In this document: piece after piece, positions 1,717 to 27,329 of the stretch
How the letters are laid out: each line of letters opens with the position of its first letter
Position numbering within the stretch: the stretch's first letter is position 1
Assembly (NCBI GenBank): GCA_905178155.1
Contig: CAJINV010000001.1
Span: forward strand, 14,577,119-14,630,124
DNA from: Amoebophrya sp. A120
Taxonomy: Eukaryota > Protista > Dinoflagellata
Reading direction: 5' to 3'
DNA: 53,006 bases
Program-made: the position numbers and the translations under genes
Notes under the pieces: generated by a model
The model's database searches: none
Seen by the model: the letters and a program-made list of their open reading frames with translations, nothing else
Told to the model about the DNA's origin: nothing

Positions 1717-1816
1717 NNNNNNNNNNNNNNNNNNNNNNNNNNNNNNNNNNNNNNNNNNNNNNNNNNNNNNNNNNNNNNNNNNNNNNNNNNNNNNNNNNNN
1801 NNNNNNNNNNNNNNNN
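1717..1816. other. Assembly gap (100 N); a further single N at 5840
   Basis: Run of N. Confidence 1.
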
Positions 1817-1911
1817 TCTCGGAGAGGCAGAAACGACAAAGACAGCCGCAAGCGATCGGCGCAGACCGAAAGTCGCTAGCGGAGAGAGATCATCGCGCAA
1901 AATTCCACCAA
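1817..1911. repeat. 95-bp direct repeat B, copy 1 (identical to 5841-5935)
   Basis: tctcggagaggcag...aattccaccaa occurs at both sites; both copies begin right after N. Confidence 0.85.
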
Positions 1912-2561
1912 GAAACTGCCGATGTCAGTCGTACTGTCAATAAGCTAGCTTTGGCGTGCCAATAGCTAACGTAAATACGAGGCAAATACGTGTCGAGTCA
2001 GTCCTGTCCGACAATCGGAGTCATCATAAGTCAATCGCTGTGGTCAGGTTTACCTGCACTACCGCGACATAGGGCGGCGCGGGTGGGTCATTTTTGAAAA
2101 ACGGTTCACCACTGTTTGTCGTGCACCATTGGCACTTCGGGAGAAGGCGTTCATAGCTAGCTAAAAACCTCGCTCGTCAGAGGGCGGTGCCGCGAGAACA
2201 AAGATCACCGCACTCCCGGACAAACCGGAAGTGGACTGCCCCGAAATCATTCGCAGATGATTTCCTCATTTCCATCGTGCTCGGTCGACGTTCAAAGATA
2301 GATCAACGGAACAAAAAGAGCAACTGCTAGCTAGTTCAATAGCTAGCACGCCTGCTTTGGCTAGTTCACTTTCATCTTGGTCATTTCTGAGATCCGTCTC
2401 CGATTTCATTTCTATTCTAGGTACTCGGGATACTTCGAATAATAAAGAAAGAAGAAAACCGAAACGATGAAGACAGTTGCTGCTAAGGACACCCCCCAGC
2501 GCTTGGGTGTCGGTATCTCTGTCCTGGCCATGAGCGGCTGGCCGCACAAAAAGAAAGAAGC

Positions 2562-5143
2562 GCAGTTAGAAACCTCGGGGCGGTGGCGGCCGCTAGTTTC
2601 CAGCTAATTTGTGCGGGATTTTTTCAAACCCCGACAATCGGGATAATAGTTGAAGGCCCAAACCCGAAAAGGCGACAACCCAAGTTGCCGCGCGCGAGGT
2701 CCCAAAACAAGCACGAGAGGGGCTTCAGGACAAGAAAAAGAAAACAACGAGAAGCAGGCCGCCTCCTACACATGGAGCATGGCAACGCCGGCAATCTCAC
2801 ACAGGACGAATTCCCACAAAACAAAACCCCAAATCCCAAAACCGCCCGAGAAGCAAAAGAACCCGTCGAACACTCCACCCAGTTGCACCCATACGAAACA
2901 CCCCCCGCGGGCGGCTATTTTCGCTGCTAATTCTGCGGCTAATTTTGTTTCTATTTTTGGGCTATATTTTCGTTACTAATTTTGCTTCTATTTTCGTACT
3001 CTAAATCATGTTCTATTTTCGTACTCTAAGTCATGTTCTATTTTTGGGCTCTAAGTCGTATTCTATTTTGGCTTCTAAATCGTGCTTCTATTTTGCTTTC
3101 TATTTTTAGCGGGATTCGCATGTTCGAGCGGCTGCTTTTCAACTTCTAAATTCGCGCTTTGGAGGATTTCCTTTGGAAATCTCCAGCGTCACGAAAAATA
3201 GAAGTTGGGAAGACAGCGGCCGAACACGCGAATCCCGCAGAAAAATAGAAAGCAAAACAGCGAGCACGTTTAGAAGTCCAAAATAGAATACGACTCAGAG
3301 CCCAAAAGTAGAACGCTTTCGAAAAGCCCAGCGAGAATGGCTTTGCGAAAGAACGAGACAGGGATAGGGTGCAGGGATTTCAATCAACTCAGATGGAGGG
3401 CGTGGGGCGACTTCGCCCGCTAAATTTTGGCTAATTTTTTCGGGATTTTTAAAAAGTCCGGGCAAACAAAGGCGACCGCGGTGGCGTTGCCGCCGAAGGA
3501 AAAGAGTAAGCCCGCGCGGCGTGGGCAAAAGAAAACAAAACCCCAGCGGAGTTTGCGACGGCTATTTTGCGGCGGCCCGGACGGAGCGCGCACAGAACGA
3601 GACGACACCCCATGGCGCATGGGGGATAGACATGGAAACGAAATGCCCGAAGGCGGAAGCCCTTGAACCCAAGAAGGACAGACCCAAACGGAAGCCGGCG
3701 CCGGCGGAAATGTGTTTGGCCCCCGGAAATCAGTGGGCCACCATCCCATGCGCGAATGGTTATTATATTTCCCCACCACATTTCCACCACCCCAAACGAT
3801 TTAGCCTTCCGCGCTTTTTGCTAAATTGGCAGTTTAGCAAAAAGCGCGGAAAATCCTTTCTAATTTGGCCCGCTAAATTGTGTGCTAAATCGGCCGGCTA
3901 AATCCTATTCTAAAACCTATTCTATTTTTTGTTATAAATCGCATGGCTAAATCATGCACTAAATTGCCCTTCTAATTCTTGTTCTAAACTTTGCGGGATT
4001 CACACTCCTTTCATCTTCGCCTCGAACGGCTAAATTCGCGAGTACAGTGATTTCGGGAAGGAAGTCACAAACTTGCAGATTTAGCCGCCGACTTCGAAGA
4101 TGAAAAAGTGTGAATCCCGCGGCTTTGGAAACATGGAAGTCCTCTGGACTTCTATATTTCCAAAGCCACATTTAGAACAAGAATCCTGCGACGAAGGTCG
4201 ACGTCATCAGAAAGACAAACACAACACAGCGCGGAGCGCGATGCAGAACAATTATAAGGAGAGGCAACCCCCAGGGCTTGGCCGAGATAGTGACAGACAC
4301 CATCTCGAGCCTGTTGCGCCTGAGATAATGCCTTCCCCTGCAACACACATGACCACGCTGCCGGATATTTTGCGTGGTGCAAAATATCCGGAAAACCAGC
4401 GTCGGAAGACATGTCGAAATTGGCCGTCTCCACATTTCTATGGAAAACCGGGCCAATTTTTAAATTTTAAAACTTGGCGCGCGGCCAAACACAAAACACA
4501 AGGTAGGAGCAGGCACCGCGGCCGCATTGTACCAGTGGCCCACAGACACGAACAAACCCCATGGGGCCGATAAGGCGGAGACGAACCAGACAGGGGGGAG
4601 CGATAAGACACGAACCTGGGCGGCGGCACACGGGCCAAGCCAGAGAGGTGCCCGGGCCTTGGGGCCTCGGGGAAATCCCGGAAAATTTAGCCAGTTTTTA
4701 GCCCACGAACTGGCCCCACCGTCCTCCACCTGAATCAACATTGGCCACACGGCCCAGGTCTTCACAACCCAAGCCGAAAATCCGAGGGCCCCCATGAAAA
4801 TCAGACCACAAGCGCTGCCCTCCACCTTCGGGGCCACCCGGGTACGAAAATACCAAAGAAGCCCCCAGGGCGTTCGAAATTCCGAATCCCCTGCAAGCGG
4901 CCCTAATTTTTAAATTTTAACTCCCGTCGTGGCTTTTCATGGAAAAACACACGCGGGGCCAACGGGGGGACTTGACAAAAACCCGGCCCCCCGGGCGCGG
5001 TGGAAAAGGGCGGAACCCTGCGGGCCCGGGAAACTTCAGCGCCCGGGGACGAAAAGCGCCGCCCGCCCTAAGGGCTCCGGGGAAATCCCGCAAAAATTAG
5101 CTGGGATGTAGTGCCTCCCGCGGCCCGCGGGCTCTCTGACTGA
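2562..5143. mobile_element. Non-autonomous TIR element, TCAGTCAGA family (~1.23 kb plus nested insert)
   Basis: Ends gcagttagaaacctcggggc / gcgggctctctgactga. Near-identical to 32795-34021. Left flank AGAAGC, but right flank TCCTGG does not match. Confidence 0.85.
3389..4733. mobile_element. Non-autonomous TIR element (1345 bp), TSD ATCAAC, nested in the previous element
   Basis: ~60-bp imperfect TIR tcagatggagggcgtggggc / gccccaccgtcctccacctga. ATCAAC at 3383-3388 and 4734-4739. Absent from the sister copy near 33615. Confidence 0.92.
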
Positions 5144-5839
5144 TCCTGGCCGTAAGCGGCTGGCCGCACAAAAAGGAAGAAGCCGAAACCATGAAGGCAG
5201 TTGCTTTGAAGGACACCCCCCAGCGCCTGGGTGCGTATCTCTGTCCTGAGGGAGCGTAAGCGGCTAGGCGCACAAAAAGAAAGAAGAAAACCGAAAAAAA
5301 CCACGTAGGCCGTTGCTGCTAAGGACACCCCCCAGCGCTTGGGTATCTCTGTCCTGGCCATAAGCGGCCGGCCACACAAAAAGAAAGAAGCCGAAACCAT
5401 GAAGACCGCTGCTGCCAAGGACACCCCCCAGCGCCTGGGTGTCTCTGTCCTAAGCATGAGCGGCTGGGCACACAAAAAGAAAGAAGAAAACCGAAACCAT
5501 GAAGACAGTTGCTGCCAAGGACACCCCCCAGCGCTTGGGTATCTCTGTCCTGGCCATAAGCGGCGGGCCACACAAAAAGAAAGAAGGAAGCCGAAACCAT
5601 GAAGGCAGTTGCTTTTAAGGACACCCCCCAGCGCCTGGGTGTCTCTGTCCTAAGCATAAGCGGCCGGGCACACAAAAAGAAAGAAGAAAACCGAAACCAT
5701 GGCGACAGTTGCTGCTAAGGACACCCCCCCGCGCTTGGGTATTTATGTCCTGGCCATAAGCGGCCGGCCGCACAAAAAGAAAGAAGCCGAAACCATGAAG
5801 GCAGTTGCTTTGAAGGACACCCCCCAGCGCCTGGGTATC
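5144..5839. repeat. ~100-bp satellite array, truncated at N
   Basis: Repeated aaccatgaagacagttgctgctaaggacaccccccagcgc(c/t)tgggt..ctctgtcct units. Confidence 0.95.
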
Positions 5840-5840
5840 N

Positions 5841-5935
5841 TCTCGGAGAGGCAGAAACGACAAAGACAGCCGCAAGCGATCGGCGCAGACCGAAAGTCGC
5901 TAGCGGAGAGAGATCATCGCGCAAAATTCCACCAA
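5841..5935. repeat. 95-bp direct repeat B, copy 2
   Basis: Identical to 1817-1911. Confidence 0.85.
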
Positions 5936-6020: not shown

Positions 6021-7003
6021 TCACTCCTCTTTTGCGTTTTCAAAAACCGTCACGGTCACTTTGCTCCAACAAGCAAAACATCTAGCAGCGAAAGACTCTA
6101 TCATAGGCAAATAACGACTCCAGTCGCCTCCTGCAAGGCCACAGCCAATCAGGTGCGGGAATCCGATGGCTAAGTAGGCATCCTTTTCGGGAAACTTGTC
6201 TTGCAGTTTCGTGAATAGATCGTCTAGACCCTCGCGGAACCATTGTTCCCGTAGGGCGGGCGACTCCGCGTTCCCTTTCTGTACAGTCGGCACCTTGCCG
6301 GGTTTATACTGGCCATACACGTTGGCTACAAATCTACTCGACTTGGGCGCCACTTTCCGCAAGTCTGTCTTACCTACTTCTCTTTTGTGAAATGCATTGC
6401 ACGTGTCCGCCGGCGCGAACTTTCTAAATATGGCTTTTGCGAAGCCAGCTGGCTTGTTAGTCAAGCAGTTGCACTGGTGCGCCAGCGCGTTGATGTGGTT
6501 AGCTTCTAGTAAATCTGCTTTCACTAGTAAGATTTTTTTGGCTTCCGCCTCCAATGGCGGTTTCTTCTTTCTTTTTGGTTTTTCCAAAATCGCCTTTGAA
6601 GCGTCGCCAAGCTCCTGGCTGGGGAGTTTCAAACTTTCCGCGTCTACAGTTGATAGTAGATAGTATGCGTTGTCCGTTTTGGGAAGGGTTTCCCAATAGG
6701 ACCCCCTGCAAGTTTCGAACAGCTCGCGGCTCTTCTGAAACTTTGCTACTTGGAAAAATTTCGCGTACAAAAAAGCGAGCCTGGATTTATACTTAGGCAC
6801 TAGCATGATAGCTCTCGGCCGCCGCTCCAATTTTAGCTTCATGTAAGGCGCGAGCTTTTCCAGCACCGGATAAACTTGGTCGTTGGACGGGTGCCACCAA
6901 GACACTTCCGCGCGCAACTCCTCATCCGTCATCTGGTAGGCATCTGTCACATCTGTCCGAAAATAATCAACCAACTTGCTGACTCCCCTTCTGTCCGCCA
7001 TAG
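6021..7003 (-). CDS. pol: 3' part of YR-retroelement pol: rest of the Dam-like MTase domain + Poa1p/TARG1/DarG-type macrodomain
   Basis: In-frame continuation of ...TPTVDAM into ADRRGVSKLVDYFRTDVTDAY..WWHPS..VLEKL..RAIMLVP. Macrodomain motifs ADLLEA, AHQCNC, AGFAKAI, VANVYGQY and FPHLIGCGLAGGDW. Confidence 0.85.
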
Positions 7004-8298
7004 TCAAGTGGTCCCATTTCCCAAGATCAAAATTTTCAAAAAAAGCATATTTATTTTTTCGATCCTTCAGCGCAGCGCGTCCTCGCACCCCAGAAACGCC
7101 GTCTCGTCGCGGGCCTGAACAGGAAGAGAAGTCGGCGGCGGCCACGATAGAGTGCCTCCCGCCTCCGATGAGCCGCGGACGAAGTGCGGCGACACGCTCG
7201 TGCGGAATGTCCTGGAGAAACAGCGAGATGTGCGTCCCCAGTCCGGAAGGCAACGTCGTCTGCGAAAATGCGCGCCGCCTGGTGCGTGGATGGATCGGCT
7301 CCGTCGGGTCTATCTGTGTTCCAGCCATATCCACCACGGCTCTGCTCGACATATGAGACCCTCTCCTCCCGCTCTGGCCGATTTGCTTTCTCTTTATTTG
7401 ATATACACATGTGGAGCGAACGCAAACAAACGAACAACCCCGCGGCGCATGGCAGGTCTTCCCCTGTGGTTCTACGTGTTTATTTTTTTGAAGGAATCAG
7501 AAAAGAGTAGATCGCGAAAAGTTCCCGTCTAGTTAGGGTGAGGAGTTCTCTTGCTTTTCTAAATTAGCTTTAAACTGTTTGCTTCGGTGGTTCTACGCTG
7601 TGGCCACCTGGTAGCTGCCTTGTCGCTGCATGCTGCAGCTTTCTTGGTAACACCGCTGCCAGATCCTACATTATATCTACTTGCCGGCACTTTTTCGTGG
7701 CGACTGGTCGTTCTCATCAGGGGCTTTCTAATTTCTAAACAAAGATTAGTTCAAGTGCTGGCGTGACTTCCAGCGGCAAATGGGGAAGGCGCTGGCCATC
7801 CTGTAGACCAGACGGAATCTGTGTTTCCAGCCTATACACACAGCGGGAAAAGGTGAAAGGTAGTTTCTAGCTCAAACGACTGCGCAAGAGGGTGCGTCGA
7901 CTAGTTGCATGAGTGCAACAGACCGATGCCACGCAAGGCATCACGTGGGGAAAACTTCAAGCAAATAGAGCTGGCTCGACATTTCTAAATCACGAAAGAG
8001 CAAGAGGCAGGAATCTTACTCAACTTCAATACTTATCTCATTGCTGGATTGCCGGTAAGCCTTTTTTTCACTTTCTAACTGATCAGAGTAGGGCGCTGAA
8101 AATAGCAGTTCTCGCGCTCTGTGATGAGCCGACCTCCAGAAACCGAGGTCACAAAGTTGCAAAATCAAAACAATGTCGCTAGTTCATTTCCCAAAACAAG
8201 ACGTCGTCATTATTTTTTTTTCAATTTCAGGGCTCGCCAATAGAAAGTAAATATATCTCTAGCTACTGTATCTAAACCGAATTTTACTGCGCTGGCAC

Positions 8299-9208
8299 TT
8301 ACGAACCGATCTTCTTCCCCATTTTGTGTTTGTTCTTGATCTCCGCAAGTTTGGACTGCCACAGCGACTGATCCTTACCCGACGGAGACTTGCCGACGTT
8401 GCCACCGGAAGAGGAAGAGGAAGAGGACTGGTTGTCATGCCGCTGCTGCGCCACCACGGCCATCTTCTGCACCTTATTGTCGAAGTTCTGCTTCCGCTTT
8501 TTCGCCGCCGGCATCATCGCCTTATCCTCGTCCTTTTCCTTCTTGGTGCGGGTGGTTTTGGCCTTTTTGGTCTCAACCTTCTGGTCCCGTTTTTTCTGCT
8601 CCAGCGCACTGGAGATGTTGTTCGCCAGCGCCGTCATCTCGACCTGCGTCGCGGCGGACAGATACTTCTTCGCCCTTTCGCGGTATTCGTCGATCTTCTG
8701 GATTTTGAGGTCCATCTCCGCCTCCGTCAGGTTGTTGATTTCGTCAGAGTTCAACTTCAACATCTTTTTCAGCTCCTGGTACGCGTGACCGTCGTCCGCC
8801 AAGATGCTCGTCCCCATCACCCTGTCCAGTCCGATCTTGTACACCAGGTCCGGCATATGGATGGAAAAAGCGGCGACAAGCCCAAGCCTTATCATGGTTT
8901 TCAGCCACATAGGAGGGCCAATGTGGGCACAGTCGAACATTACAAACATGGACTTGCCGCCGCTTTTGCAATCAATATGTCGGCAACAGCTGCGCATACT
9001 GCGCCGCCTCAAGCGCCTCCTTGCACTTCAAGTCTTCCTCGCTGAACCGCATGTACACGATGCAGCGCGCAGCCTTACGGTAGTCCGCAGTGTCCTTCTT
9101 GAACAGCTTCATCGCGGCTGCGAGGTTGTTGGCCGTCCTCTCCTCGCTGTTTTGTGTTTGAGTTGAATTGTTTCCAAGGGCTGTGGCCTGCCTTCTAGAC
9201 GAAGGCAT
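8299..9208 (-). CDS. Transposon cargo gene, unknown helical/basic protein, probably two exons (8972-9208 and 8299-~9012)
   Basis: Two overlapping minus-strand ORFs with coding-like composition; no recognisable domain. Confidence 0.55.
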
Positions 9209-9556
9209 GTCGCTACCAGGCGTCTGTCGGTGTTGGGAACGAAACTACACAAGAGCTAGATCACCGGCCCCCTTTTGCCAGAACACGTCCTAAAATGCCA
9301 GTCTTTGCCTCTTCCCTAAAAGGATCGCCGATAAAACTTTGCGAAGGGGCAAGCACACACTGCAAAATTGTCAAAAGTGATTTTTAGGTGCGGACAAGGC
9401 GTGCTGTATAACAACGACAGAAAGGAGGAAACTTTCGCCGTTTCCTCTCCTCTGCTGCATCAGAAAATTTGCACACCCATGGGGACCAGGCGAGACGTAT
9501 GACAAAAACGGGCCATCTTTCGAACTAAAAGCAAACCTCTATGGACCGCGGCCCCA

Positions 9557-10414
9557 TTACCCAAATCTTAGCGATAAAAAATACCTTCTGTAGATGGCGT
9601 ATTGGTTCCGGGAATTGATTCGCAGGACGCAGCTCACCGTCTCCTGAATCGCCTGGACCGCTTCCACAGCACACTTTTCCAGCAACTGCAGAACGTTCGT
9701 CTTCAATTTCGGAAACGGGCACCGGGCCTGGGGTAACTTCTGGATGTCCTCCTTCGCGGACAAGATGCTGCCCGGGTCGTCGGCGTCGAACTTGATGCTC
9801 AGATCGTTCAAGAGGTAGCTGGGCCAGCTGGTGAAGCCGGTGAGGGTGATGCCGCGGTCCTGCAAAATACCCGCGATGGCCACCTGCGAGATCTGCAGGT
9901 CGGTGAACTTGTTCCACTCCTTGGTTTGGGCGATCGCCTCGAGCACGATCTGGTAGGAGTCACGCTGCTCCAATTTGACCAACTCGAGGATTTCCCGCGC
10001 AGCCTCGATCAACCCCTCCTCGATGCAATCCAGAATTTCGAACTTGGCAGCGGACCCGTCCACCTCGGCGACGGCGCGCTGCATCGGCTTGTTCCCCTGA
10101 CTCAACCACGCCGGCGGCTCCGTTTTCGGTGGACGAAAAGACGGCGAGTTGAAATCCAGCCAGGTTAACCAGGAGAGGTACTCGAAAACACGCAAGATCT
10201 GCGTCTGTTCCGTGAACACCTCCACACTCCACTTTTTCGCGAACATGCTCTGCAACAAGAGCACCCCAGTCTCCTGGAAGATTTCGAAGCGGAAAAGCGG
10301 GACGATGTCCTCAATCCCGAGGTCTTTCACCTGCTTGAGCATTGCGTGCTCGCAGTTACTATGAATTGCAAAAATATCGCGCCTGTAGTATTGCAATACA
10401 AATTTTCTCAGCAT
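9557..10414 (-). CDS. Transposon cargo ORF, unknown (possibly the 3' exon of the 10461-11567 gene)
   Basis: 285-aa ORF of globular composition; TACAG acceptor-like site near 10383. Confidence 0.6.
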   Translation of the reverse strand: MLRKFVLQYYRRDIFAIHSNCEHAMLKQVKDLGIEDIVPLFRFEIFQETGVLLLQSMFAKKWSVEVFTEQTQILRVFEYLSWLTWLDFNSPSFRPPKTEPPAWLSQGNKPMQRAVAEVDGSAAKFEILDCIEEGLIEAAREILELVKLEQRDSYQIVLEAIAQTKEWNKFTDLQISQVAIAGILQDRGITLTGFTSWPSYLLNDLSIKFDADDPGSILSAKEDIQKLPQARCPFPKLKTNVLQLLEKCAVEAVQAIQETVSCVLRINSRNQYAIYRRYFLSLRFG

Positions 10415-10460
10415 TAAGAATGCAATTTGTCATGCTGAATTGCTTTGCAGATGAGATCTG

Positions 10461-11567
10461 TCATGCATACTTGCGAATACTACAAGCGAAATACTTTTGC
10501 ACATGATAGTTACGCATCTGCTGCAATTCTTCCTCCTCCCAAATGTACAGAGTGTCCAGCTCCGGGACGACGTACTGGTACTTTGTCGGCTGGCGCGAGA
10601 AGGTGTCGTTGGAATTGTCGGCCACAAAACTGCTTCCCATCGTGGCACTCCCAGAAGACGGGGCCACCGGATGCAGCCCTTCCGAACCAAAGTAAGCGAT
10701 AGAAGAAGACGCCACGCCGGCATTGGGAATCTCCTTGCTCTTCGAGTCCGCTTCCACCGATCGTTCGCCCTGCGAGGGCAGGTCCTCATCTGCGTACTTG
10801 TTGAAACTGGTATTGTCCAGGAGCTGACTATCCTCGGCGTCCTCCGCGTCTTCCCCCTTGCCGGAATCCATCTGCAACGCCGAGGTGAGAAAGTTGTCCG
10901 CCGGCGACGTCGCTTCACCGGAAGTTGCCCCAGCTCCTTCACCGGTGGTTTCTTCAGCGGCAGATTCCACAGCTTCTTTTCCTTCGGCCTCCTTCTTACT
11001 CCCAGTCACTTCGCGCACACCATGCAGGGCAACTGGATCGCGATTCGGATTGTAGCCGAACAAACTGCTCTTCGCGCCGGTGGCGGAGGACCCAATGGAC
11101 GATCCCGCTCCGGGGAGAGAAAACGCAGCGGAGCCACCGCGGGGGTTCTGGCGGTACTGCGCCATCGACCGGCCGGAGTTGTTTGTAGTAGTTTTGGGCG
11201 CGATTTGTTCGTACGTGGTGTTCAACTTCTTGAGAAACTGGGCAACCGGCAAAACCGGAATCTTCTTGTCTTTCTTTTCGTTAAACTTTTTCATCAGCTC
11301 CCTGTCAAACGTCATGTTGCCGTCTGCGTCCGCTTTGAACGTGCGCATGATCTCGTAGTCGACGCTTCCACACTGTTTCTTCGAGCCCCGGACCTTTTTG
11401 TACACGTCCAGGTTGTTCGTGGTCGCGGAGAAGTTGTTACGCCGCAACGCCTCCAGGATCTTGGGGTCCGTCATAGCAGCGCGCTCCTTGCGCTGCTTAT
11501 CCGCGGCGGCCTTGTCACCCATCTCTTTCGAGACGGCCTGCTCGATGATATTATCACCGATGACCAT
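10461..11567 (-). CDS. Transposon cargo ORF, unknown, low-complexity acidic/Ser-rich C-terminal half
   Basis: 368-aa ATG-initiated ORF. Confidence 0.65.
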   Translation of the reverse strand: MVIGDNIIEQAVSKEMGDKAAADKQRKERAAMTDPKILEALRRNNFSATTNNLDVYKKVRGSKKQCGSVDYEIMRTFKADADGNMTFDRELMKKFNEKKDKKIPVLPVAQFLKKLNTTYEQIAPKTTTNNSGRSMAQYRQNPRGGSAAFSLPGAGSSIGSSATGAKSSLFGYNPNRDPVALHGVREVTGSKKEAEGKEAVESAAEETTGEGAGATSGEATSPADNFLTSALQMDSGKGEDAEDAEDSQLLDNTSFNKYADEDLPSQGERSVEADSKSKEIPNAGVASSSIAYFGSEGLHPVAPSSGSATMGSSFVADNSNDTFSRQPTKYQYVVPELDTLYIWEEEELQQMRNYHVQKYFACSIRKYA

Positions 11568-12571
11568 CTTACAGCGGGCTGCTGGGGTTCAAGCTAATGC
11601 AAAACCGCTCCTGAAAATGCAAAAAATAGCTGGGGTTCTACTCTTTTCACGTTTCCTGAGATGCTGCCTTCTGAAAAATCTGTGGTCGTGAGCACTCCTG
11701 AGGAAATAACTATACGAAAGAAATGACGCTGGAAGCTGCAACCCGACATCACGAAGCGGGGCTGGGGAGCGGGCGCGCGGGCTCTCAAACTGCTGGCCGG
11801 CAAACTCGAGCACCGGATGAGCCCGACCAGGGGGCCAGGCCATTCAGAGAAAAAAGCGGGCCAACATTTCGGGGCCGGACAAAAAATTCCGCCGCGCCAG
11901 AAAAGCCTCCGCGCAGCGAGGCTTTTCGGCGCTGGGCAAAAAAATTTTTAAATTTTCCGCCGCCGGATCTGAAAATTTTGGAAAAATTTCTGCAATAAAA
12001 AATCCAAAATTTTTAAAATTTAGGGGCGGGATTTTCAAAAAAAATCGCCCGCCCGGCGGGACAGGCGATTTTCAATAGGATTTCCTTGCTGCGCCGCCGG
12101 GGCGCGCTTTTTTTTGTTTTTTTTCGCGCCGGATCCGCCGCAAAAAAAATTAAAAAAACGGGAAAAAAAAAGTGGAAATCGCTCGGGCCAGCGCTATTTT
12201 TAAAAAATTTTGAAAATTTTTCGCGTCCTGCTATACTTTTTTTTTTGCTCCCCGAGCCCCCGCAAACGGCAGCAAGCGCGCGCGTCTTGGCTTTTGTAAA
12301 AATGCTCTGCAGGCGATTTGGCGAGTTTGAATGTGATTCGCTTTCTTCCATTTTTCGATCTCTCACTGCGCTTTCAGCTCTCGCGAGGTCGAACTCAGAA
12401 CAAACGAGGACCGAAGAATGCGGCGCAAACAAGCTAGAGCGAAAAAAGACCGTGACTACACCTAGAATTTCGACGGACTGAGAGACTGCGCATTTACTTT
12501 CCTTCGATAGCCACTCGATTTGTCTTCGTGTTCAAAACATTGAAAAAGCTCTGCGAAAGCTCGAACCACTA

Positions 12572-15500
12572 CTATTGCGCACTAGCTGCTTCAGTTATCA
12601 TGCTAATGAGCGGTGCAAAAATTTCACTTTTTACTGCGATCGCAGTTCGTTGCTGAATTTGCACAGCGGTGAGCCTTTTGCCTTTTCCCGCCGCCTGTGC
12701 CAGCTCCTCCGCATCCGGATCCTCTGTTGCAACACGCAGATACTCCGTCGCGTCAAAAGTTGCGGCCTCCAGCTGCTCCTCCACCTCCCCAGCCGCCTGG
12801 AGTTCGATCGGAATCGCGCCGCGCTCCAACGTTGCCACGGCAAAGGCACAGGCTGCGGCCCAGACCCGGCCGAGGCAGGCGCAGACGGCCCGCCCACCAA
12901 ATTTGTTTATGTCGAACTGCTTCGACAAATGCAGCCCGTGCTTCCGATGCAGCTCCGCGGGGCCGAAGGTTATCACGCGGTCGAACAGAATGCCGTCCTT
13001 CGGCATCCAGGCCCGGTGGCCCGGTTGCCCCTCCCGGGTATTCGCTCGCAACCAAAGCCCGCCGCCCAGTCTGGTATGGTATCCCTCGACACTAATGGAC
13101 GAAAGGGCCGGAACCTCGTCCAACTGTTCGCGGGCAGACAACAGCTGCGCCGCTAGGTTTTCCGCGTTCTCGTTGTAGTTATCGTCCCCTCTGTGGCGCA
13201 GGCTACGGTGCTGCTGCGCAGAAGAGCTTGCGGCCGAGCCCTCCGCATAGCCCGCCGGATGCGCGCCACCGCTGTTCTGGCACCGGGACTGTGCGGCACG
13301 TCCACTCTCCCGGCGGTGCCAGATGTCTGCTGCGCGGTTGTGCAACGTCGGGTCCGTCAAAAACTGCTCCAACTCGCGCTCTCGCATTGCGCGCGCGAAC
13401 TGCAGCCCCGCAATCTCTTCATCATCATCAAACTCATCCCCGGTGTCCGTGTCTCCTCCATCGTCGCCAGATTCAGATTCTTCGGCCTGCAGAAATTCGT
13501 CGACCATTTGCAACAATGGCTTCCCCTCAAGCCAGTCGAAGACGAATGTGCAGGAGGAAACGTCAAACGAAAGCGGGGCATACCAACACTGCGCCGACTC
13601 TTCAAAATTTTCCTCCATCACCGCGGCGAGGTTCGTCAGGCTACATTCTTCCACAGGTGGTAGAGCCACGTGAAATTTGTAATCCCCACTGGAGATTGCT
13701 GGCTTCGGCGTCATCTTCAGCAGACCGACGGTGCGCTGATGACCTTCTGCGGGGGAAAGGACGAAAACCGTCTTCACCAGCGGCTTCGCGCGTCTGCGCA
13801 AGTTCGACTCAATGCCGGCCAGGCTGCTCTCGTCATCGTCCTCGGGGTCCAGGCCGAACACAACTGCACCTAGTCGACCGCTTTCGCAGGTATCTTCAGC
13901 TTCCAGAACGCACCTCTCGACCTCGTCGGCTGTCAATGCTGCGGGAAACTCGTAGGAGGAGTACGCCTGCTGAACGGTGGTCCCGAGCCACGAACCGGGG
14001 GCCGTACAAGAAGTCGTCCGGTCGCGCTCAATATCGGCCCGACTTTGCTGCCAATAATCGCGAATTTTTTCGAGGGGCACGGGAAGATCCAGCGAAGAGC
14101 TGCTACTCCGGCCTGGCGGACCGGCCGAAATTGCTGCTGCGGGAGGTCGCGCACCGGAGGTTTGTGCAATACTAGAAGACGACGACGCGGCGCTGTCGCC
14201 CCCGGTCTTGGCCTTACCCTGCCACACCCAAGCTCCAGAAGCGTCACGGACTAATGTCCCGGACTGCTCTTCTTCCACTTCCGGGTCGGAGCCCTGGGGT
14301 TTCTGCCCTTTCGCCTTCGCCGCATTTGCTGCATCGCTTTCCAGCTTCAGCCGCTTCCGGTCCGGCTCATACCGTGCTTTCTCCTCCTCGCTCACGAGGT
14401 TGTTGTCCCAGCGCCAAGCGGCGGCCGCGAATGTCTCCTTCGCCTGGATTTGTTTCGCCGCCCCATACTCGGCCCCAAGCGCGTCGGGATTCTGTATCAT
14501 GATCTCTTTGTTCTCCTTCGCGATTTGCTCCCCGATATATTTCGACCTTGCTGAGCATTTTTGCTTTTGGACTTTTTTCGCGGCCCTTGCTGCGCGGACC
14601 GCTGCGCTGGCGTGCTGCGCGAGAAGCTCGCTCGAGAACTGCGGAGTAATTACTTCCTGCGAAAGCCCCTCCACTGTTCTTCTCTTCGTGTGCAGCCCCA
14701 CTTTTCTCGATGAGATGGCGTGCTGGCTCTCTTCCAAGCGGGTTCCAAGCGTCACCGCCGCATGAACTGTTTTTGCAAGAGCCGCCAGCTGGTGGTCCAG
14801 GAGGTTCTGAACACTGCTCCAGTCGTCGGCAAGGGGCAGCTCGCGAAACACTTGCATGGCCCCTGCCTGATTTTCGTCGTCCACAATGTCGAGCAGCGGG
14901 AGCAATATTCCGTCCACATCCACTGCGAGCAGACGCTTCTCTTGGCGCATTGCCGCCCGAACCAGCGACCCCGCCACCGCAGGAATGTCTTCGATTTTCC
15001 CCGACAAGTACCCGAGTAATTTCAGCAGTTCATGCACCTCACCCCATGCCAAGCTCAACAACTGCTTGATCCGCGCCCGTAGTGTCTCCTGCGGAAGAAG
15101 GGTTTCGCGACGGAGGCTCTCGGCCATGATGACATCCGCCGGCCGGGAGAGGAGCGCCACCCACAGCATCGTCTCGTCCACTATTTTGGGCCATTGTTGT
15201 CGAACGGATTTTCGAAAACCGTCGTCGCTCCGTGCAACCAAGCATCTACCACCCAGTGCGCCGAACAGAAGAAGCAAAGCGCAACAGCGCCCCGACATCC
15301 ACTGCAAAGGCACCGCAGTAATTACAGTCATGCATGACAAATCTTGCTTCTTTGGTAAAGCCGCATGACAAGCTTCATCTTTCCGGCTGAGAAAAATTTG
15401 CAATGCGTATAGCGATACTGCGGTGCTGTTGCAATGCATACCGAGGGTAAGCCAGCGGCTTTCGGTGCCCACTTGTATCCTCACCAGCACATGCTTGAGG

Positions 15501-16165
15501 GTCTGCACTGCTTCCTCGACCGAACCTGCGACGACTTTCATCTGCTGAAAATCGAACCGGACCTCCGACGAAACGCCCGCGCCTCCTGCTGCTGTCTTCT
15601 TCTGGTTGGGCCCGCGTTCACCAACCAGGCGGAAAAGCACCGCCGTCTCATCCATTACCGCCATCGAGGCGGACAACCCGGGGCCGCCGGGTAAGCCAAT
15701 GGACCCGGACGGTGGCGCCAGCAATTCTTCCACCCATTGCTGCAAATCTTCTAGCAGATCACATCGATGATAAATCAACTTTCTCGAAAAAACGTAGAGC
15801 TGATGGGCCCACTCTTTTGTTTCTTCATGGTTCCCGAGCACCACGCGGACCTCGTCGAGGAGACCTAGTTGGCAAAAATGGTGCATGCAGTACTGCGTTA
15901 GGCTGGCGGTGCAGGATGAACGCCTTTCATTCGTCAAAGAAGACCAAACCCGGAGGATTTTTCTGATTTTCCGCCCCGCGCCCCCACTGTCCTGAACGTT
16001 GTAGACAACTAGCGGCCGGCGGCTGCCAGGCTTGCAGATGATCTTCTCCAGCTCCTCCAAAGCGTTCTGTATGCGCGGCCAGATGTCGCCAGCTGCTTTC
16101 GCGGTCAGCAACACGAGGTCCACCGGCACCCGGATCGCGTTGTACAGGCCTCCGCTTCTCACCAC
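12572..16165 (-). CDS. Putative DDE transposase, hAT-like/CxxH clade, main exon
   Basis: 1197-aa ORF inside a TIR/TSD element. Ordered motifs VYNVQDSG (second D), YCMHHFCQL (CxxH), TESRWLT (cf. hAT TRWNS) and TRLEESQHAIS (catalytic-E-like). Confidence 0.7.
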   Translation of the reverse strand: MVRSGGLYNAIRVPVDLVLLTAKAAGDIWPRIQNALEELEKIICKPGSRRPLVVYNVQDSGGAGRKIRKILRVWSSLTNERRSSCTASLTQYCMHHFCQLGLLDEVRVVLGNHEETKEWAHQLYVFSRKLIYHRCDLLEDLQQWVEELLAPPSGSIGLPGGPGLSASMAVMDETAVLFRLVGERGPNQKKTAAGGAGVSSEVRFDFQQMKVVAGSVEEAVQTLKHVLVRIQVGTESRWLTLGMHCNSTAVSLYALQIFLSRKDEACHAALPKKQDLSCMTVITAVPLQWMSGRCCALLLLFGALGGRCLVARSDDGFRKSVRQQWPKIVDETMLWVALLSRPADVIMAESLRRETLLPQETLRARIKQLLSLAWGEVHELLKLLGYLSGKIEDIPAVAGSLVRAAMRQEKRLLAVDVDGILLPLLDIVDDENQAGAMQVFRELPLADDWSSVQNLLDHQLAALAKTVHAAVTLGTRLEESQHAISSRKVGLHTKRRTVEGLSQEVITPQFSSELLAQHASAAVRAARAAKKVQKQKCSARSKYIGEQIAKENKEIMIQNPDALGAEYGAAKQIQAKETFAAAAWRWDNNLVSEEEKARYEPDRKRLKLESDAANAAKAKGQKPQGSDPEVEEEQSGTLVRDASGAWVWQGKAKTGGDSAASSSSSIAQTSGARPPAAAISAGPPGRSSSSSLDLPVPLEKIRDYWQQSRADIERDRTTSCTAPGSWLGTTVQQAYSSYEFPAALTADEVERCVLEAEDTCESGRLGAVVFGLDPEDDDESSLAGIESNLRRRAKPLVKTVFVLSPAEGHQRTVGLLKMTPKPAISSGDYKFHVALPPVEECSLTNLAAVMEENFEESAQCWYAPLSFDVSSCTFVFDWLEGKPLLQMVDEFLQAEESESGDDGGDTDTGDEFDDDEEIAGLQFARAMRERELEQFLTDPTLHNRAADIWHRRESGRAAQSRCQNSGGAHPAGYAEGSAASSSAQQHRSLRHRGDDNYNENAENLAAQLLSAREQLDEVPALSSISVEGYHTRLGGGLWLRANTREGQPGHRAWMPKDGILFDRVITFGPAELHRKHGLHLSKQFDINKFGGRAVCACLGRVWAAACAFAVATLERGAIPIELQAAGEVEEQLEAATFDATEYLRVATEDPDAEELAQAAGKGKRLTAVQIQQRTAIAVKSEIFAPLISMITEAASAQ

Positions 16166-16323
16166 CGCCTTTGCCGTACAAACGTGAAAAAGTATGCATC
16201 TGAAAATAAGCTAGTCCCAGGCAATGGCGATGCAATTGCTACTGCTGTCTTGATCGTGTTTGTCATGCATTTTGTCATGCCAAGTGCCTGCATTTTCATC
16301 ACATGGAACTAGCTTATACTCAC

Positions 16324-16674
16324 CAACATATTCTCGCCGTTCCGCTTTGGCTGCCCCTTAGATGCAGTGGTCCCGGTAGCATTGGAAACCGTGATGCCAA
16401 GTGGCGTCCCATCGTGGCCAATTCGGAGGCAGACAGGTTCGCGCGCATCTGCGTCGCACGCCGCCTGCAGCCTGTCCTTCTGGAACCGCTTCAAATACTC
16501 CACCGCCCGAGCACGAACCCGCATAACAGTCTTCTTCTCCACTGCAAATCCGACAAGGAGCCCAAGCGATTTGGAGAAGGCCTGGTACGGAAGCGAGGCG
16601 CTGAACATTATCGCCCCGATCATGCGACCCTTTACATCGTCAAAGAGCGCCTTCTTCAACGGGTCGCCGTCCAT
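16324..16674 (-). CDS. Upstream exon of the putative transposase (first catalytic Asp)
   Basis: VCLRIGHDGTP strand-Asp motif. Ends at consensus donor GTGAGT (16323); the acceptor is uncertain. Confidence 0.6.
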
Positions 16675-17156
16675 GGTGATCTACAACGGCGCTGCCGGGG
16701 GTGGGTTGGATATGGGGTGCAATGTGCCAGCGCAGTACTCGGGTTCTAGATACACAAACGCTTCTAGCTAACGGAAAAAAATAACTATACTTCTAGCGAG
16801 ATCAACATGGGTTTATCGACAGCTATCATCAATCAGGAAGTTCAGAAACTATGCAACGAGCGAGAGAAAAACAGGGGCGATCGCAACGTCCCTCGTGCTC
16901 ATCTCTAGTCAAGTAATGCGAAGACGAAAAACGAACGAAATCAGAAATCTCCACGAGCAGCTTTGTTCTCACGGGTTTTGATATCGACAGCTCGAAGTAG
17001 TTGCTGTGCCGCAGAGCGTCTGTCAATCCGGGCGTCTCCAACTTCCGACCATTCTTCGGCGACCGTCTACAGCCATCCCACGTCCATCAATGTCCGGCAT
17101 GAAAAAATAATTTTGCTTTTTTTGATTTTTTTGAACTTGGGAATGGGCCCACATAA

Positions 17157-19341
17157 CCATAGCGTCCACAGTGGGCGTCACGCCCAAGCGAGACATAACA
17201 GCAGAAAACACATCAGGCTTCAGCCTTTTGTCTGGATACAAATCCAGCAAGGTTGTGTTTAACTGCAGTCGGGAAATGGCATCGGCAATGATGTTGTGCT
17301 TCCCTCGGACATGTTGTGCTAAGGCGCAGATGCCTAACTTGCTGCACAGCAACTTAATATCCTTGCCTTTTCGTGCTAGCCACTTTTTTCGGCCCGTGCC
17401 GAAGTTCGCGTAGTGCTTAGCTGCTGTGTTATCGGTGCGTAGCAACAGAATTTTATCTGCGTACTTGCTGCCATGCAGCTTCAACCAGTCGCGAAAGGTA
17501 GTCAGTTCCCTTTTGTTACTGTGCCGTCTGTCTATGTATTCGTTAAAATCCCCTTCATACCTCACCGAGTCTCCGTCCACCGTGACTCCCCAATGGAAGC
17601 CACTGGCGTCGGACGTAACGATGCATAGACTGGCCGGGTCTATTTCTTTAAACATTTCCGGCTTGTCCAGTAGCTCTGGGGTCAAAAGAAAGGACTTTCC
17701 TTTCGTGGATGTGTGGATCGGAATGTGCGGATCGCACTCAGGCGCTTCCTGCCACCATTCTAAATCGCTGACCACATCCGCGGAAAGAGGCAGGCTGGGG
17801 CTTGCTTTCTTGTTCCCCTTTGTCCATGCCGAAATCACTCCACTTGCGCCCAGCAAGTCATATGATGATCTCAAAAACGCCCTACCTGCTGCAACCACAA
17901 ATGACACAAAGTTTAACATACCTACGATGGACGCTAGCTCTCTAGCCGGAACTTTTCCATCATCCTTAGACTTCTTCAAAAAATCTGCCAGCACCTGAAT
18001 ATAACGCAACCGCTTTTCAGGATCTATCGAAATGCGCACTGCAGCAGAATCGATAAGAAACCCAATCCGCGCTATCTGCGTGGTAGGATAAGTAAATTTA
18101 TCCAACTTATCGGGTCTAAAGGGATGTAACAGAATCCCCACCCTTTTCCAGATGGTTCGCACGACCATCATGTCGATGTATACACTTTTCAAGTCGGTTG
18201 GTCGCACCAAAGAGCAACCCCTGATATCATCTACATAATCCCGCATGCTAATACGCGGGAACTTTTTTTGGAGTGCGTGAGTTAAACTTTTTATCGCGGA
18301 GTCTGATATTCCGGGGGACGGACTAAGCCCCATCGCGGCAAATAGTATCTCAACAACTTTTTGCGCTTTCGCGTTGTAAAAATTGACTCCCATGAGTCTT
18401 CTAAATTGTGGCGCGATTAACCACAACCAAAAACAATCCTTCACATCCAAGCCCCACATGAGGCACCATCTTACCAAATCGGCCACGAAGTCGAAGATCG
18501 ACTGGCACATCGTGTCAACGCTTTTCAACATGCTGCTGAGACCCACCTTGGTCCAGTCGTTGACATAACGATCGCGATGCTCCCGGCGAATCAGATTCGC
18601 CGGGGCAATCGACAAACCCGGCGGGGCGTCCATCTTATCCCAGATGATCGCCTTTCCGGTTTCGGTGAACCGGTCCAGCTCCTTGGCTGCCGCGTCGAGG
18701 TTTTCCTGTATTGAAGGAAAATCCGGCTCGTCGAACAAAGGCAAGCCCTGCTCCCGGTTGTCGATCATGCGCTGGAGGTCCTCTTCGGATTCAAATTCCA
18801 GCTCAAAACCTCCGAAGAAGTTTGCACGCATCTCGGGCGAGATCCCGACCACCTTGCAGTAGTGCGGGTCGAGTGTCAAAGCGTCCGCCGCTGCTCCGTC
18901 CTCGATTTCCCTGTACTTGTCCGTGGGTCCTGGCTGTGCCGCCAGGTATTGGTAGACCTCCTCCTTGGTCTTGGGGAGTTTCAACCCCTTCACGTAGTCG
19001 TCGTTTTCAAACAACGGATCGGATGTGATTTCTGCGAGCCATTCGTCCACTATCGCTTCCGCCTCGCGGTTCCAGTCCTCGTTTTCGAGGTTGTGCAACG
19101 CATTGCGTCGATCGATTTCCTCTTGGGTCAGCTCGACCCCCATCTTTTTATAATCTCTTTTTGCCACTATGTGTGTGTGTAATCGCGATGGGTCAGGTGT
19201 GCATACCTGTGGCAGCGTACACTGCGCTCTCGCATCCCATGGATCCACGCTCGGCGCTCGGCCACCTCTCTGACAGCGTGCGCACGCTCTACAAGAAGTG
19301 ACTACATCTGTGAAAACAGGTGTCGCTCGTGACAAAAACAT
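17157..19341 (-). CDS. pol: YR-retroelement pol 5' part: reverse transcriptase, RNase H, start of MTase
   Basis: RT motifs LDVKDCFW, MGLSPSP, YVDD and IGFLID. DIRS-type RNase H motifs SDASGFHWG, HSNKREL, RTDN and HVRGKHNIIADAISR. MT start RLKPDVF..LGVTPTVDAM. Confidence 0.95.
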
Positions 19342-19494
19342 AGCTGAACAAGCTGCGCATCCTCGCTTGCGCCAGTCCGCGCTTCATGTGGCTCGAGCAA
19401 CGCCGCTCCCCCGCGTGCGGCCACCTTTGTTCGAAACAACGCTAGATCTGGCATATCATCAAAAAACCAACATCATGTTTGCCAACGTCATGTT

Positions 19495-20092
19495 TTACGC
19501 CTTGCGTGCTTTTTTGTCCAGAAACCTCGTAGCGTCATTAAGCCTTTTGGTGTCGTTGATCAAATCCAGACGACGACTCCACTGCTTGCTAGCTACAAAG
19601 GCCCACTCGGCCCACTTCAAACCAAGAGTCATGTCCTGATCATCATCGGACAGAGTCACCCACAATTCTGTGAGCCTTTCCAGCAAGTCACACCAGCGCA
19701 CTTCTTTGTACGCTGCCACGCAACTCGTGATCATTTTCTCGTGATTATTCTTGCTGTCATTCATGATTTTGACGCACCTCAAGCACTTTTGCACCTCATC
19801 TGCTTTGGCCAGCGTCTCCTGCTGGGCCCGAGCAAATTGCTCGATGCTCATCTGGGCGTAGTGCAGATTCATGGTCTCTGCGCTTGGTCGATCCTTGCTC
19901 TTCCAACCGCCCGCATGCAACGCCATGTGCCTGTCGTACAGTCCGTAAATCCTCGCGCCGGAAGCTCGGAAGCTGATCTTCTGCGGCTCCGGGAGTCTTT
20001 CTTTCCACTTGAAAGAAGATTTGGACAAGTGATCGCGCAAAACGTCACTGAAGTACTTGTTGGCCGCTTCAGGGGATAACATTTTCATCCCG
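19495..20092 (-). CDS. Tyrosine recombinase C-terminal part
   Basis: ISFRASGA (HxxR box, His substituted), AGGWKS and LHYAQ (Tyr nucleophile). Joins in frame as CPSLNG-MKMLSPE. Confidence 0.85.
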
Positions 20093-20856
20093 TCAACGGG
20101 ATCGGACCCCAATGGGCCCGGAAATAAAAAAATCATGAATCCCAAAAGAAAAACGAAAAAAAAAATTTTTGCACTGCCGCCCTATTGTGCCAAACCACTC
20201 CGCCGGGGCTCGCTCGATAGGAAATCTGTAGGCCCTAAAATAACGCCGGGGCTTTGTCAACAGGCTGCGGACCTGTGGGCTCCGGGGTTTTCGAAGAACT
20301 GCGCCACATGAAATCGAGCACGCAACTTTTGTTCGGGCAAACACAACTTCACCGAAAAAACAGAAAGACACCGAATAAATTTGCGCCAAAAAATTGCCTT
20401 CTTTGCGACATGAGTGCGACACGGGTGCGACACCGGTGCGACACGGGTGCGACATTTTTCGGCTTCTTCCTGAAATCCCTAAGAAAAAAAAAACCACGGC
20501 CGAAAGCCGATTTTTTTTAATTATTTCAGATTTTTTGTCGCAACAAAGGCGATTTTTTGTCGCAGAATTAATTGGCCACTCGCCCACCCAAAACTTTCCC
20601 ACCCAGAATCCCTCTCCCATCCCGAAGCACACACCGGCAACATGGGCTCCCTCTGCCGGCCCCACTCCAATCCCTTGCGCCCAGGCCTGCTTTTCCCGCC
20701 CAACCCACAAACCCAAGACACACAACCAGAAAAAGAAAACGCACCAGCGAGCGGCTGCAAGAACTGCGAAAACCCTGCGAAAACTTAAAAGCGCGAAAAT
20801 TTTCCGGCTTTTGTGATTTTTTTGCTTTTCTGACTACTGGGGGCCGATCCCGTTGA
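20093..20856. mobile_element. Non-autonomous TIR element (764 bp), TSD ATCCCG, inside the YR catalytic domain
   Basis: TIR tcaacgggatcgg(a/c)cccca. ATCCCG at 20087-20092 and 20857-20862. Internal 11-bp gtgcgacac(g/c)g tandem near 20410-20455. Confidence 0.92.
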
Positions 20857-21740
20857 ATCCCGTTCAGCGACGGGCACAAGTATTCTTGGTCAACTGCTAT
20901 CAAGTTTTCGCACCGCAACAGCTCATGTGCGCTGACCGCCACTTTCCTGGCGCCGCTACTTTCCTGGAAGTTGAGTCTCACGCTCGGGTCTGGCGACAGT
21001 GTTGCGCTGCCTCTGGGCCACCCCCAGTGCTGCGTCAACACCAGTAGCAGCTCTTCGCTTGCTTTGAACAAAACTTCCGGCGACGGCTGCAACGCCGCTA
21101 CATCTGGTACGGCGATCTGGTGCCCCGCCGCCATCGTGCCGAGCTTGAAGTCCGTTTTTCCCATCGTGATTCTCGCAATGAGCCCTCCGCGATGTATCCT
21201 TACCGACTGCCGTAGCATCCTGCACCCTTCGGACTTCCGCCTTTCGCCTAACACTCCTACTCGCACAAATAGTAGTGTTCGCAATCTGCAATACAGGGCT
21301 TTCATCCTGTTCAGCTTGGTGCCGTCCTTGGTGGTGTAACCCGCCTTCTCCCACTGGTCTTCGGCCTCCTGGTTACCCGGCGGACGAGCCTGACCGCTTG
21401 CCGACACTGCGAAGCGCTGCAGCGGTACCACTTCGCCTCTTGCGTTTGTCAGCCAAAACGCGGGATCAAGCGCCAAAACTTCATTGTTGAACTGCTTGAG
21501 CTCCTCGAAGGTGAGCGCGGGCTTCGGTGTCGGCTGCGGGTGGTGCGACATCTTCTTGATCGCGGCCCACATGTCCATGACATCTGGGTGCTGCTCTATC
21601 AGCCCGAAATCGAACATTTCGACTTTTCTCCGATGAAAATCCCGTAGCGCCGACCTCAGAAGGTTCATCATGTGCCACTTCGTTTTTACTACTCCGTTTA
21701 CTTTGGTGACTCCTCGGAGGCTTTTCTCGTTTTGCAGCGC
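20857..21740 (-). CDS. Tyrosine recombinase middle part
   Basis: LRSALRDFH, KPALTFEEL, LGERRKSE (catalytic R) and GKTD (K). Confidence 0.85.
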
Positions 21741-26434: not shown

Positions 26435-27329
26435 TGTTCCGTCCGCTCCTGCGGCCACCGACTGGAACTTCTCTTGCAGTTTAATAGTATTTAATTGCGC
26501 CTGCAAACTCCCGTTTGTCTTCTTCGAAATTTCCATCCTCGGAAATTTGACGTATGTTTTCACCTCGTCGATGAAAAGCTTGTCCTTCTTGCGCAGCAAC
26601 GCGCACTGTCCCAGGAAGGGGCAGTGCTGGTGAATCTGTTTCGCCACGTCCCATTCCGAGATCTTGGGGCTCTCGTCCATGATCGCCTGAGTCGCAGTGT
26701 CGTCCAACGCGGACTGCGCGAGCTTCTGACACATGAAGCAGTCCAAGTTGAGTCCTGTGCGCAAGCACTTGGGGAAGTAGGTGCCGCACACATCCTTCTG
26801 CTCTGTCTGGCACGGCCCGCACACGGCGACGTCTTTGCAGGATGCACACAAGTGCAACATGTCCGGCAACGCCGTTTTTGCGAAACTGCGATCGCAGATT
26901 TTACACGAGACGTCCGTCTTTTCCTTTTTAGCCGTGAAAAAAGGAGTCGACGACTTCCGCCGGCGCAAGGACTCGATGTCGCTGTCGGTGTCCGGCTCGG
27001 ACCGGAGGCCCGCGGCTCTCCGCTTTTCCCGCTTCAAGCGATGCTTTTCCGCGATCTTGGTGCGCTCGGCCTTGAGCTCCTTGATCTCCTGGCCCATGAA
27101 ATTGATCTGATCCATCACGTTCCTCTCCCTCTCCTCTTTCCACCGAAGACTGGAGGAGGTAGTCAACAAACTGGATTTCACACCTTGCAACTCCATGGCC
27201 AGCTCCTGCGTCTCCTTGCTCATGGGCTCCTTGAACTCGTTGATGGATTCACCCATGCAGTTGTTTTCGTTCCAACCCAGCTCATTGCAGGCGGCGCGCA
27301 GTCCATTTTTGATCTTGTGGATGTTGTGC
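26435..27329 (-). CDS. ORF1 middle exon: coiled coil + Cys-rich zinc finger
   Basis: CKIC..CASC..CGPC..C..C..CFMC. Joins in frame as GADGT-TSMIDT after element removal. Confidence 0.75.

Follow-up and report, generated by a model that had tools for sequence, protein, structure and literature searches.

A two-gene, 10-kb inverted-repeat transposon with a predicted C/DxxH-group transposase in a retroelement of Amoebophrya sp. A120

The stretch of DNA analyzed here (the window) comprises 53,006 nucleotides of the dinoflagellate Amoebophrya sp. A120 (assembly GCA_905178155.1, contig CAJINV010000001.1, positions 14,577,119 to 14,630,124). It contains a 10,153-bp element, situated at positions 7004-17156 of the window, which is bounded by terminal inverted repeats (TIRs) and a 6-bp target site duplication (TSD). 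The element carries two genes on the minus strand, gene 1 (12572-16674) and gene 2 (8299-11567). The best explanation, with a probability of about 0.72, is that this two-gene TIR element sits in the pol gene of a retroelement and was moved, by cut-and-paste transposition, by its own predicted DDE transposase of the C/DxxH group.

Ends, target and copies of the element

The left TIR (7004-7060, plus strand) is 57 bp long, starts with TCAA and has a G+C-richer outer part and an inner A-tract. The right TIR (17101-17156, minus strand) is 56 bp long and starts with TTAT. The two repeats are identical at 47 of 56 aligned positions, with one gap, and are aligned by blastn with an E value of 4e-10. 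An exact copy of the hexamer CCATAG abuts each of them, at 6998-7003 and at 17157-17162.

Excising the element together with one copy of the TSD joins 740 and 327 stop-free codons into a 1,067-codon pol-like reading frame. The frame survives any cut of 0, 3, 6 or 9 bp, so that the phase is fixed by the frame and the length by the exact repeat. Because the target frame is restored upon removal, the insertion is real; this check is decisive and stronger than a scan for repeats. A plain scan, requiring a 6-bp repeat and an inverted match at 15 of 20 positions, found nine matches in the window as against zero to three in each of 12 shuffled sequences, and the 10-kb element scores just 15/20 in it, owing to the gap between its TIRs. 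The scan criterion alone is weak proof for this element. The first-pass annotation of the window, made from the sequence alone, had proposed imperfect TIRs of about 57 bp and an exact CCATAG duplication. Both stand, and the element is confirmed as a genuine TIR/TSD insertion.

The interrupted gene is on the minus strand. Its 5' part (17158-19383) is an open reading frame (ORF) resembling reverse transcriptase (RT) and RNase H, with a Pfam RVT_1 match (E 0.022) below the cut-off. The 3' part (6021-7001), in frame with the 5' part, has a macrodomain at its end (PDB macrodomain 5e3b, E 1e-6). Judged by eye from its motifs, the target looks like a pol gene from a retroelement of the DIRS type, and we know of no earlier case in which the pol of such a retroelement carries a fused macrodomain. 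By eye, the retroelement extends over 6021-27346 (minus strand), with a gag-like ORF at 27346-23909, a recombinase-like ORF at 21812-19495, the RT/RNase H part at 19383-17158 and the terminal macrodomain. It is a hot spot of nesting. Besides the 10-kb element, two elements with 6-bp TSDs have inserted at 20087-20862 and 25202-26440; every one of the three interrupts a retroelement ORF, whose frame returns when the insertion is removed.

The number of copies was estimated from sequencing depth, with the reservation that DNA run X1 is possibly the source of the window itself and not independent of it. In X1 a single unbroken contig covers gene 1 and the right end, and its depth there equals that of the flank (22), as expected of a single copy. 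The left 1.09 kb (7003-8092, plus strand), which has no convincing ORF, has a depth of 44.7 versus 19-22 in X1 and of 81.6 versus 42-43 in X2. The extra copy differs from the first at three or four positions and is joined, precisely at the TIR start, to a different flank. In the contig graph of run X6, position 8092 is connected back to 7003 by a loop over 52 other letters. Runs X3, X4 and X6, which are RNA only by guess, contain the extra left-end copy and not the remainder of the element; the raw RNA runs X8, X9 and X10 gave 2, 0 and 0 matching reads, too few to count as a test. The left end has a recent one-ended duplicate, in tandem here or elsewhere, as seen from the depth, the loose ends and the loop joint. 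The loop over 52 letters could reflect a tandem duplicate, a circle, or a one-ended insertion flanked by direct repeats.

The predicted transposase and its partner gene

Gene 1 was modelled, free of stops and with the help of homology, as three exons (16674-16324, 16183-15442 and 15291-12572) that code for a predicted C/DxxH-group DDE transposase of 1,270 amino acids. Here as in gene 2, the ends of the introns were placed by homology and reading frame. Intron 1 (16184-16323, about 140 nt) is recognized from the frame change between homologous exons. The segment at 15292-15441 is an in-frame, introner-type insert of 150 nt that has inverted repeats of 25 nt as well as direct repeats reading TCGG. 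The corresponding 50 residues, situated after the SRW motif, are absent from all four aligned homologues.

The motifs HDGT, QDSG, CMHH, SRW and EESQHA follow each other in this order along the protein, and the key residues are D88, D182, C216-x-x-H219 (CMHH), W361 and E551/E552. The C/DxxH group is defined by a C/DxxH motif that lies after the second D and before the last E (PMC9587614). In gene 1 this motif is C216-M-H-H219, and its C and H are invariant in all five aligned sequences.

A search with the core over 1.84 billion representatives returned seven proteins. Of the four named ones, two belong to Amoebophrya sp. AT5.2, while A120 and A25 contribute a fragment each. The remaining three are records from JGI or ENA, and one of them falls in a cluster with a third protein of AT5.2; named homologues come solely from Amoebophrya AT5.2, A25 and A120. 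Together with the introner-type inserts, which have TAT starts and 4-5-nt direct repeats, the named homologues point to an Amoebophrya-type syndinian as host. The gene 1 model is 35-40% identical to four homologues across nearly its full length, the full-length colinear homologues having E values from 5e-121 to 9e-68, and the cores of the homologues are 45-49% identical to one another. GHDGT, DSGG, CxxH, SRW and EESQH are invariant in the alignment. The spacing is constant in all four homologues, with 94-96 residues from the first to the second D, 33-39 from the second D to the C, and 319-338 from the C to the E; SRW sits 129-147 residues past CxxH. Several divergent members per genome may be inferred for this family. 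Word-index searches, each over about 8,000 candidates, yielded two known proteins with an alignment and, among shorter proteins, one known fragment; with the window exon as query, no homologue appeared among the candidates. In scans of loci, none of 126 and none of 594 pattern matches in metagenome contigs, and none of 142 in viral contigs, proved to be a relative, and a tblastn search of plasmids gave noise only (E 6).

Gene 2 was likewise modelled without stops, its boundaries coming from homology. Its exons (11567-10509, 10354-9585, 9137-8981 and 8850-8299) code for a predicted 845-residue protein of no known family. It is 26% identical over 430 residues to the 843-residue protein P0009 (E 5e-41), for which a Pfam search found no domain. 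The intron at 10355-10508 (154 nt) is of introner type, with a 5-nt direct repeat and a TAT start, and belongs to a high-copy repeat family (bin depth of 1130 versus 19 in run X1). Another introner-type intron (8851-8980, 130 nt) has inverted-repeat ends and a short direct repeat, and the inferred intron at 9138-9584 (447 nt) is of the GT-AG type. Gene 2 comes after gene 1 also in the gene models P0003 and P0008, so the pair appears to be the layout of the family. In P0008, from AT5.2, the fused pair is preceded by about 340 residues which, by eye, resemble an ion-channel host gene, as in a member inserted in that gene.

The earlier proposal of a large internal gene with D..D-CxxH..RW..E motifs in the order of a transposase is borne out by their invariance across homologues. 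The proposal of a distinct lineage agrees with a very divergent, intact protein whose named relatives are found only in Amoebophrya. The element has two genes, not one. Three features were absent from the first-pass annotation altogether: the retroelement gene as target, the second gene, and the 150-nt insert in the transposase gene.

The fold of gene 1 was approached through its homologues. An AlphaFold2 model of homologue P0001, calculated from 10 sequences, has a mean predicted local distance difference test score (pLDDT) of 51. It has, in order, a strand, a strand, a helix, a strand ending at D102, a helix and a strand ending at CxxH, all of low confidence, and then a long helical region; the RNase-H order described in PMC3942029 is the same. 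A first search of the ESM Atlas found unnamed clusters at 0.82-0.85. With the N-terminal 270 residues of a homologue, the named clusters were the P-element RNase-H N-terminal part (0.82) and ZBED1/hAT (0.77), which are leads only. The NCBIfam ISKra4 hidden Markov model (HMM) matches exon 1 with an E value of 0.024, over the first D and the helices before it. In the VIA results, one HMG domain was superimposed on residues 532-605 of the homologue model (Z 6.2, root-mean-square deviation 4.1, 59 aligned residues), which is a middling score; these HMG-box-like helices are located after the conserved E. The gene 1 family also has basic residues 15-17 positions after this E, and the basic patch of Kat1 is reached from E895 at K907-R911 (PMC4763223). 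An AP2-like domain near the C-terminus, suggested by eye, was dropped, having no support from Pfam, PHROGs or a tblastn search of phages. As the weak leads combine with the TIR/TSD anatomy and with the order of the motifs, gene 1 is very probably a C/DxxH DDE transposase.

A number of observations weigh against the proposed explanation. Pfam had no match for any of 10 aligned family members, nor for segments of them, and sequence searches of the PDB gave no relevant match. Foldseek found no match at E<=0.001, a result with which an RNase-H fold is still compatible. A fold from the single sequence had a pLDDT of 36 and is uninformative. The catalytic core of the P0001 model is mostly below a pLDDT of 50, too low to place the D/D/E residues relative to one another. 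The top rows of the VIA results are helical bundles, mostly from the C-terminus, with no transposase among them, which likewise leaves room for an RNase-H fold. Both named Atlas scores are below 0.9, and the ISKra4 match was obtained for one of 12 proteins, far below its cut-off. The outermost bases of the two TIRs are unequal at positions 2 and 4, which may reflect ageing of the copy. No second full copy was found in the X1 contigs at 85% likeness, contigs being known to drop rare variants. None of the short elements of the window, described below, shares the TIR of the 10-kb element, the best match in register being 11/22, with the 764-bp element.

On a rival reading, gene 1 would be cargo, or an enzyme other than a DDE transposase, on a non-autonomous element whose insertion is nevertheless real. 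This would account for the lack of a significant match of gene 1 to any transposase profile or structure, and many other acidic residues are invariant too (26 of the 177 invariant columns, in a small alignment). Nevertheless, a C/DxxH transposase agrees with the order of the motifs, with their spacing, with the secondary structure predicted for the protein and with the independent, if weak, leads, and both genes travel together at unrelated sites, as in P0008 after the channel-like host sequence. This rival reading is very unlikely.

Relation to known superfamilies

The hAT superfamily offers the most points of comparison. Its members are TIR elements with a CxxH after the second D, and the invariant SRW of gene 1 would correspond to the conserved Trp in their large helical insertion (Hermes W319, Kat1 W576). 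The basic patch about 15 residues past the E is found in Kat1 as well (PMC4763223). The TSD of hAT elements is usually 8 bp, with 5, 6 and 7 bp in hAT5, hAT6 and hAT7 (PMC3942097, PMC12730594), and is 6 bp in the one insertion here. Three differences count against the proposed hAT-like action. The first D is followed by G-T in all seven sequences that cover the site, unlike the D-x-W of hAT enzymes (Hermes W182; Kat1 D310/W312, PMC4763223). There is no BED finger, the 87 residues before this D having no CxxC pair in the window protein, P0002 or P0011. The TIR of 57 bp and the length of 10,153 bp are to be compared with 10-25 bp and 2.5-5 kb in hAT elements (PMC3942097). Further differences are the 700-residue C-terminal extension with the HMG-like domain, the second conserved gene and the lack of a Pfam or PDB sequence match. 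The hATC domain had no Pfam match, and the distance from the E to the basic patch is like that in Kat1. No search returned an alignable hAT sequence.

The other groups fit less well. The P element and THAP9 belong to the C/DxxH group and gave the top named Atlas cluster (0.82, a lead only), but the P element has a TSD of about 8 bp (PMC3706591) in place of 6 bp, no THAP finger or GTP-binding domain was matched in Pfam, and two genes are present here. The MuDR/IS256/ISKra4 (p-MULT) assemblage shares C/DxxH and, in some members, extra genes, and the weak ISKra4 match points to it. Its CxxH, however, is 11-19 residues past the second D and its insertion has 99-138 residues in the prokaryotic members described in PMC3942029, as against 33-39 and more than 300 here. 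Kolobok is in the C/DxxH group, and Kol0 has a second gene, KolX; its TSD is TTAA and its termini are RR..YY (PMC9587614), whereas the present element has CCATAG and TC/TT starts. Dada, also in the group, makes TSDs of 6-7 bp (PMC3706591, PMC9587614) but has no TIRs and targets small-RNA genes, whereas the present element does have TIRs and lies in a pol ORF. IS3EU has a 6-bp TSD and TIRs longer than 30 bp; its ends are TAYGG..CCRTA and thus differ from the termini here (PMC12730594). No single superfamily is matched by the element in all of these features.

Only somewhat short of an even chance stands the possibility that the element is a very divergent hAT (like hAT6), or a member of some other C/DxxH superfamily already described (P, MuDR/IS256), and that better alignments would place it in such a clade. 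hAT families with 6-bp TSDs are known (PMC12730594), proteins evolve fast in Amoebophrya (PMC7789003), the Atlas leads name P and hAT, and the CxxH, the RW, the large helical insertion and the basic patch after the E are all hAT-like. However, hAT6 is grouped among animal families of the Blackjack type (PMC12730594), D-x-W and BED are absent, the second gene is conserved, Pfam and PDB sequence matches are lacking, and the spacings are outside the p-MULT ranges (PMC3942029). Rather doubtful is the bolder proposal that the element would be the founding member of an undescribed eukaryotic C/DxxH DDE superfamily, characterized by a 6-bp TSD, a TC-start TIR, an HMG-bearing transposase of 1,250 residues and an obligatory 845-residue partner. 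It would then be the missing autonomous partner of a class of miniature inverted-repeat transposons (MITEs) with 6-bp TSDs, some of them spliced as introns.

Short elements, introners and implications

Six short elements in the window, 615-2,256 bp long, have a 6-bp TSD and a TC start (6/6). Removing three of the six restores long reading frames of 734, 515 and 240 codons, so these three are true insertions. The motif GCTAWWT is present in the terminal 80 bp of four of the six and absent from the ends of the 10-kb element. It is likely to be a binding site of one transposase subfamily. The sequences at 3389-4733, 25208-26434, 27649-28719 and 31271-31885 differ from each other and have the repeated subterminal GCTAWWT in common. 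The 1,227-bp type has two further copies, at 2563-5143, split by the element at 3389, and at 32796-34021. The first-pass annotation had cautioned that none of the short elements here has a matching TIR, and comparison within the window confirmed this. It is slightly more likely than not that sister transposases move the six elements, because they have the same TSD length and the same TC start and because several divergent transposases per genome are predicted.

That annotation had also cast the 10-kb element as a candidate driver of introner-like elements, a proposal which is mostly unsupported and, extended to the genome's introners in general, improbable. Its attraction is that an intact transposase candidate has turned up in a lineage where introners resemble MITEs but the cognate transposase was not found (PMC7789003). 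The element and the introners (Farhat 2021; Gozashti 2025) occur in the same kind of genome and share an anatomy of TIRs and direct repeats. The published Amoebophrya introners, however, have repeats of 3-5 nt and start with TAT or TTA (Farhat et al., PMC7789003), are mostly 100-300 nt long and are non-coding, whereas the 10-kb element starts with TC/TT, made a TSD of 6 bp and brings genes of its own. The 3-5-nt repeat and TAT/TTA start of introners are likewise absent from all six short elements. The introner-type inserts of the window have 4-5-nt direct repeats and TAT/CAT starts. Three such inserts, one from a very high-copy family, are within the element's own genes, which makes the element a host of introners.

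A similar picture emerges from Dataset S2 of PMC12130899, as covered here by 57 of its 58 A120 rows and 4 of its 60 A25 rows. A TSD value is given for 35 of the A120 introner families, of which one (fam293, 4 introns) has 6 bp, 33 have 2-5 bp and one has 11 bp, the length being taken from the column after the TSD coordinates and two rows bearing different manual notes. Fam293 speaks for the 10-kb element as a driver, as does the tag 'hAT6 termini' of the A120 family fam135 in the same dataset, but the length of the TSD is normally fixed for a given enzyme, as is established knowledge (PMC3706591).

A possible likeness between the right TIR, shifted by one base, and the TAT-start element at 37499-38497 (14/22 positions; 33, the best local score in the window) also favoured the driver proposal. 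None of 200 letter shuffles equalled this likeness, yet its score barely exceeds the background of 31 from A/T-tracts in real window sequence, and the likeness was rejected as marginal. The element at 37499-38497 is 989 bp long, with near-perfect 59-bp TIRs, a 5-bp TSD and TATGG..CCATA ends. These ends match the IS3EU terminus (PMC12730594) and resemble those of the A120 family 38, labelled 'Ginger', with a 5-bp TSD and TA ends (PMC12130899). This suggests that an integrase-type enzyme may drive the TAT-start introners. Possibly nested in the same element is a stretch of 647 bp that is accompanied by a 6-bp repeat (37669-38327).

The window has some other features. A tandem satellite of about 100 bp occurs at 5140-5840, 33960-36830 and 39090-39420. 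The segments 2159-3383 and 32396-33616 are 98% identical, flanks included. Assembly gaps (100 N and 1 N) at 1717-1911 and 5840-5935 each precede the same 95 bases, and the repeat of these bases near the left flank is a probable scaffolding artefact. A Copia-type ORF resembling RT and RNase H was noted by eye at 817-1875 (minus strand), across an N gap; Pfam found no domain in it.

Assuming that the two-gene element was moved by its own transposase, transposition can be pictured as follows. The gene 1 protein would have a core of RNase-H-like fold (D88, D182, E551/552), into which about 330 helical residues are inserted that include CxxH and RW. It would act most like a hAT enzyme, binding the TIRs, probably with the aid of the HMG-like domain. 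DDE catalysis would excise the element, leaving hairpins on the flanks if the reaction is hAT-like, and the element would be reinserted at a 6-bp staggered cut. The product of gene 2 may be a co-inherited accessory factor. Sister enzymes would probably mobilize the short, TC-ended elements with 6-bp TSDs, as MITEs, in trans. The TAT-start introners with 4-5-nt repeats were probably moved by a different enzyme and invaded the genes of the element.

A literature search found no description of such a family, although Repbase and the supplement of PMC7789003, which were outside the search, may list it or the two A25 transposases. Farhat et al. reported two putative transposases in A25 but none in A120, and on this ground excluded a general transposase-driven spread of introners (PMC7789003). 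Named fragments of the present family occur in the gene sets of A25 and A120, and AT5.2 has three divergent members, yet the family is invisible to Pfam, NCBIfam and the PDB. As such fragments exist in both A25 and A120, little weight attaches to the published negative search. Amoebophrya genomes do contain autonomous TIR elements of great divergence, which weakens the argument from missing transposases without making this family the driver. The mismatch in TSD length directs the search for the introner driver to an enzyme with 4-5-bp TSDs and TAT ends. The element itself, being compact and apparently intact, lends itself to tests of a new transposition system with two proteins, and its family would add a branch to the C/DxxH transposase group.

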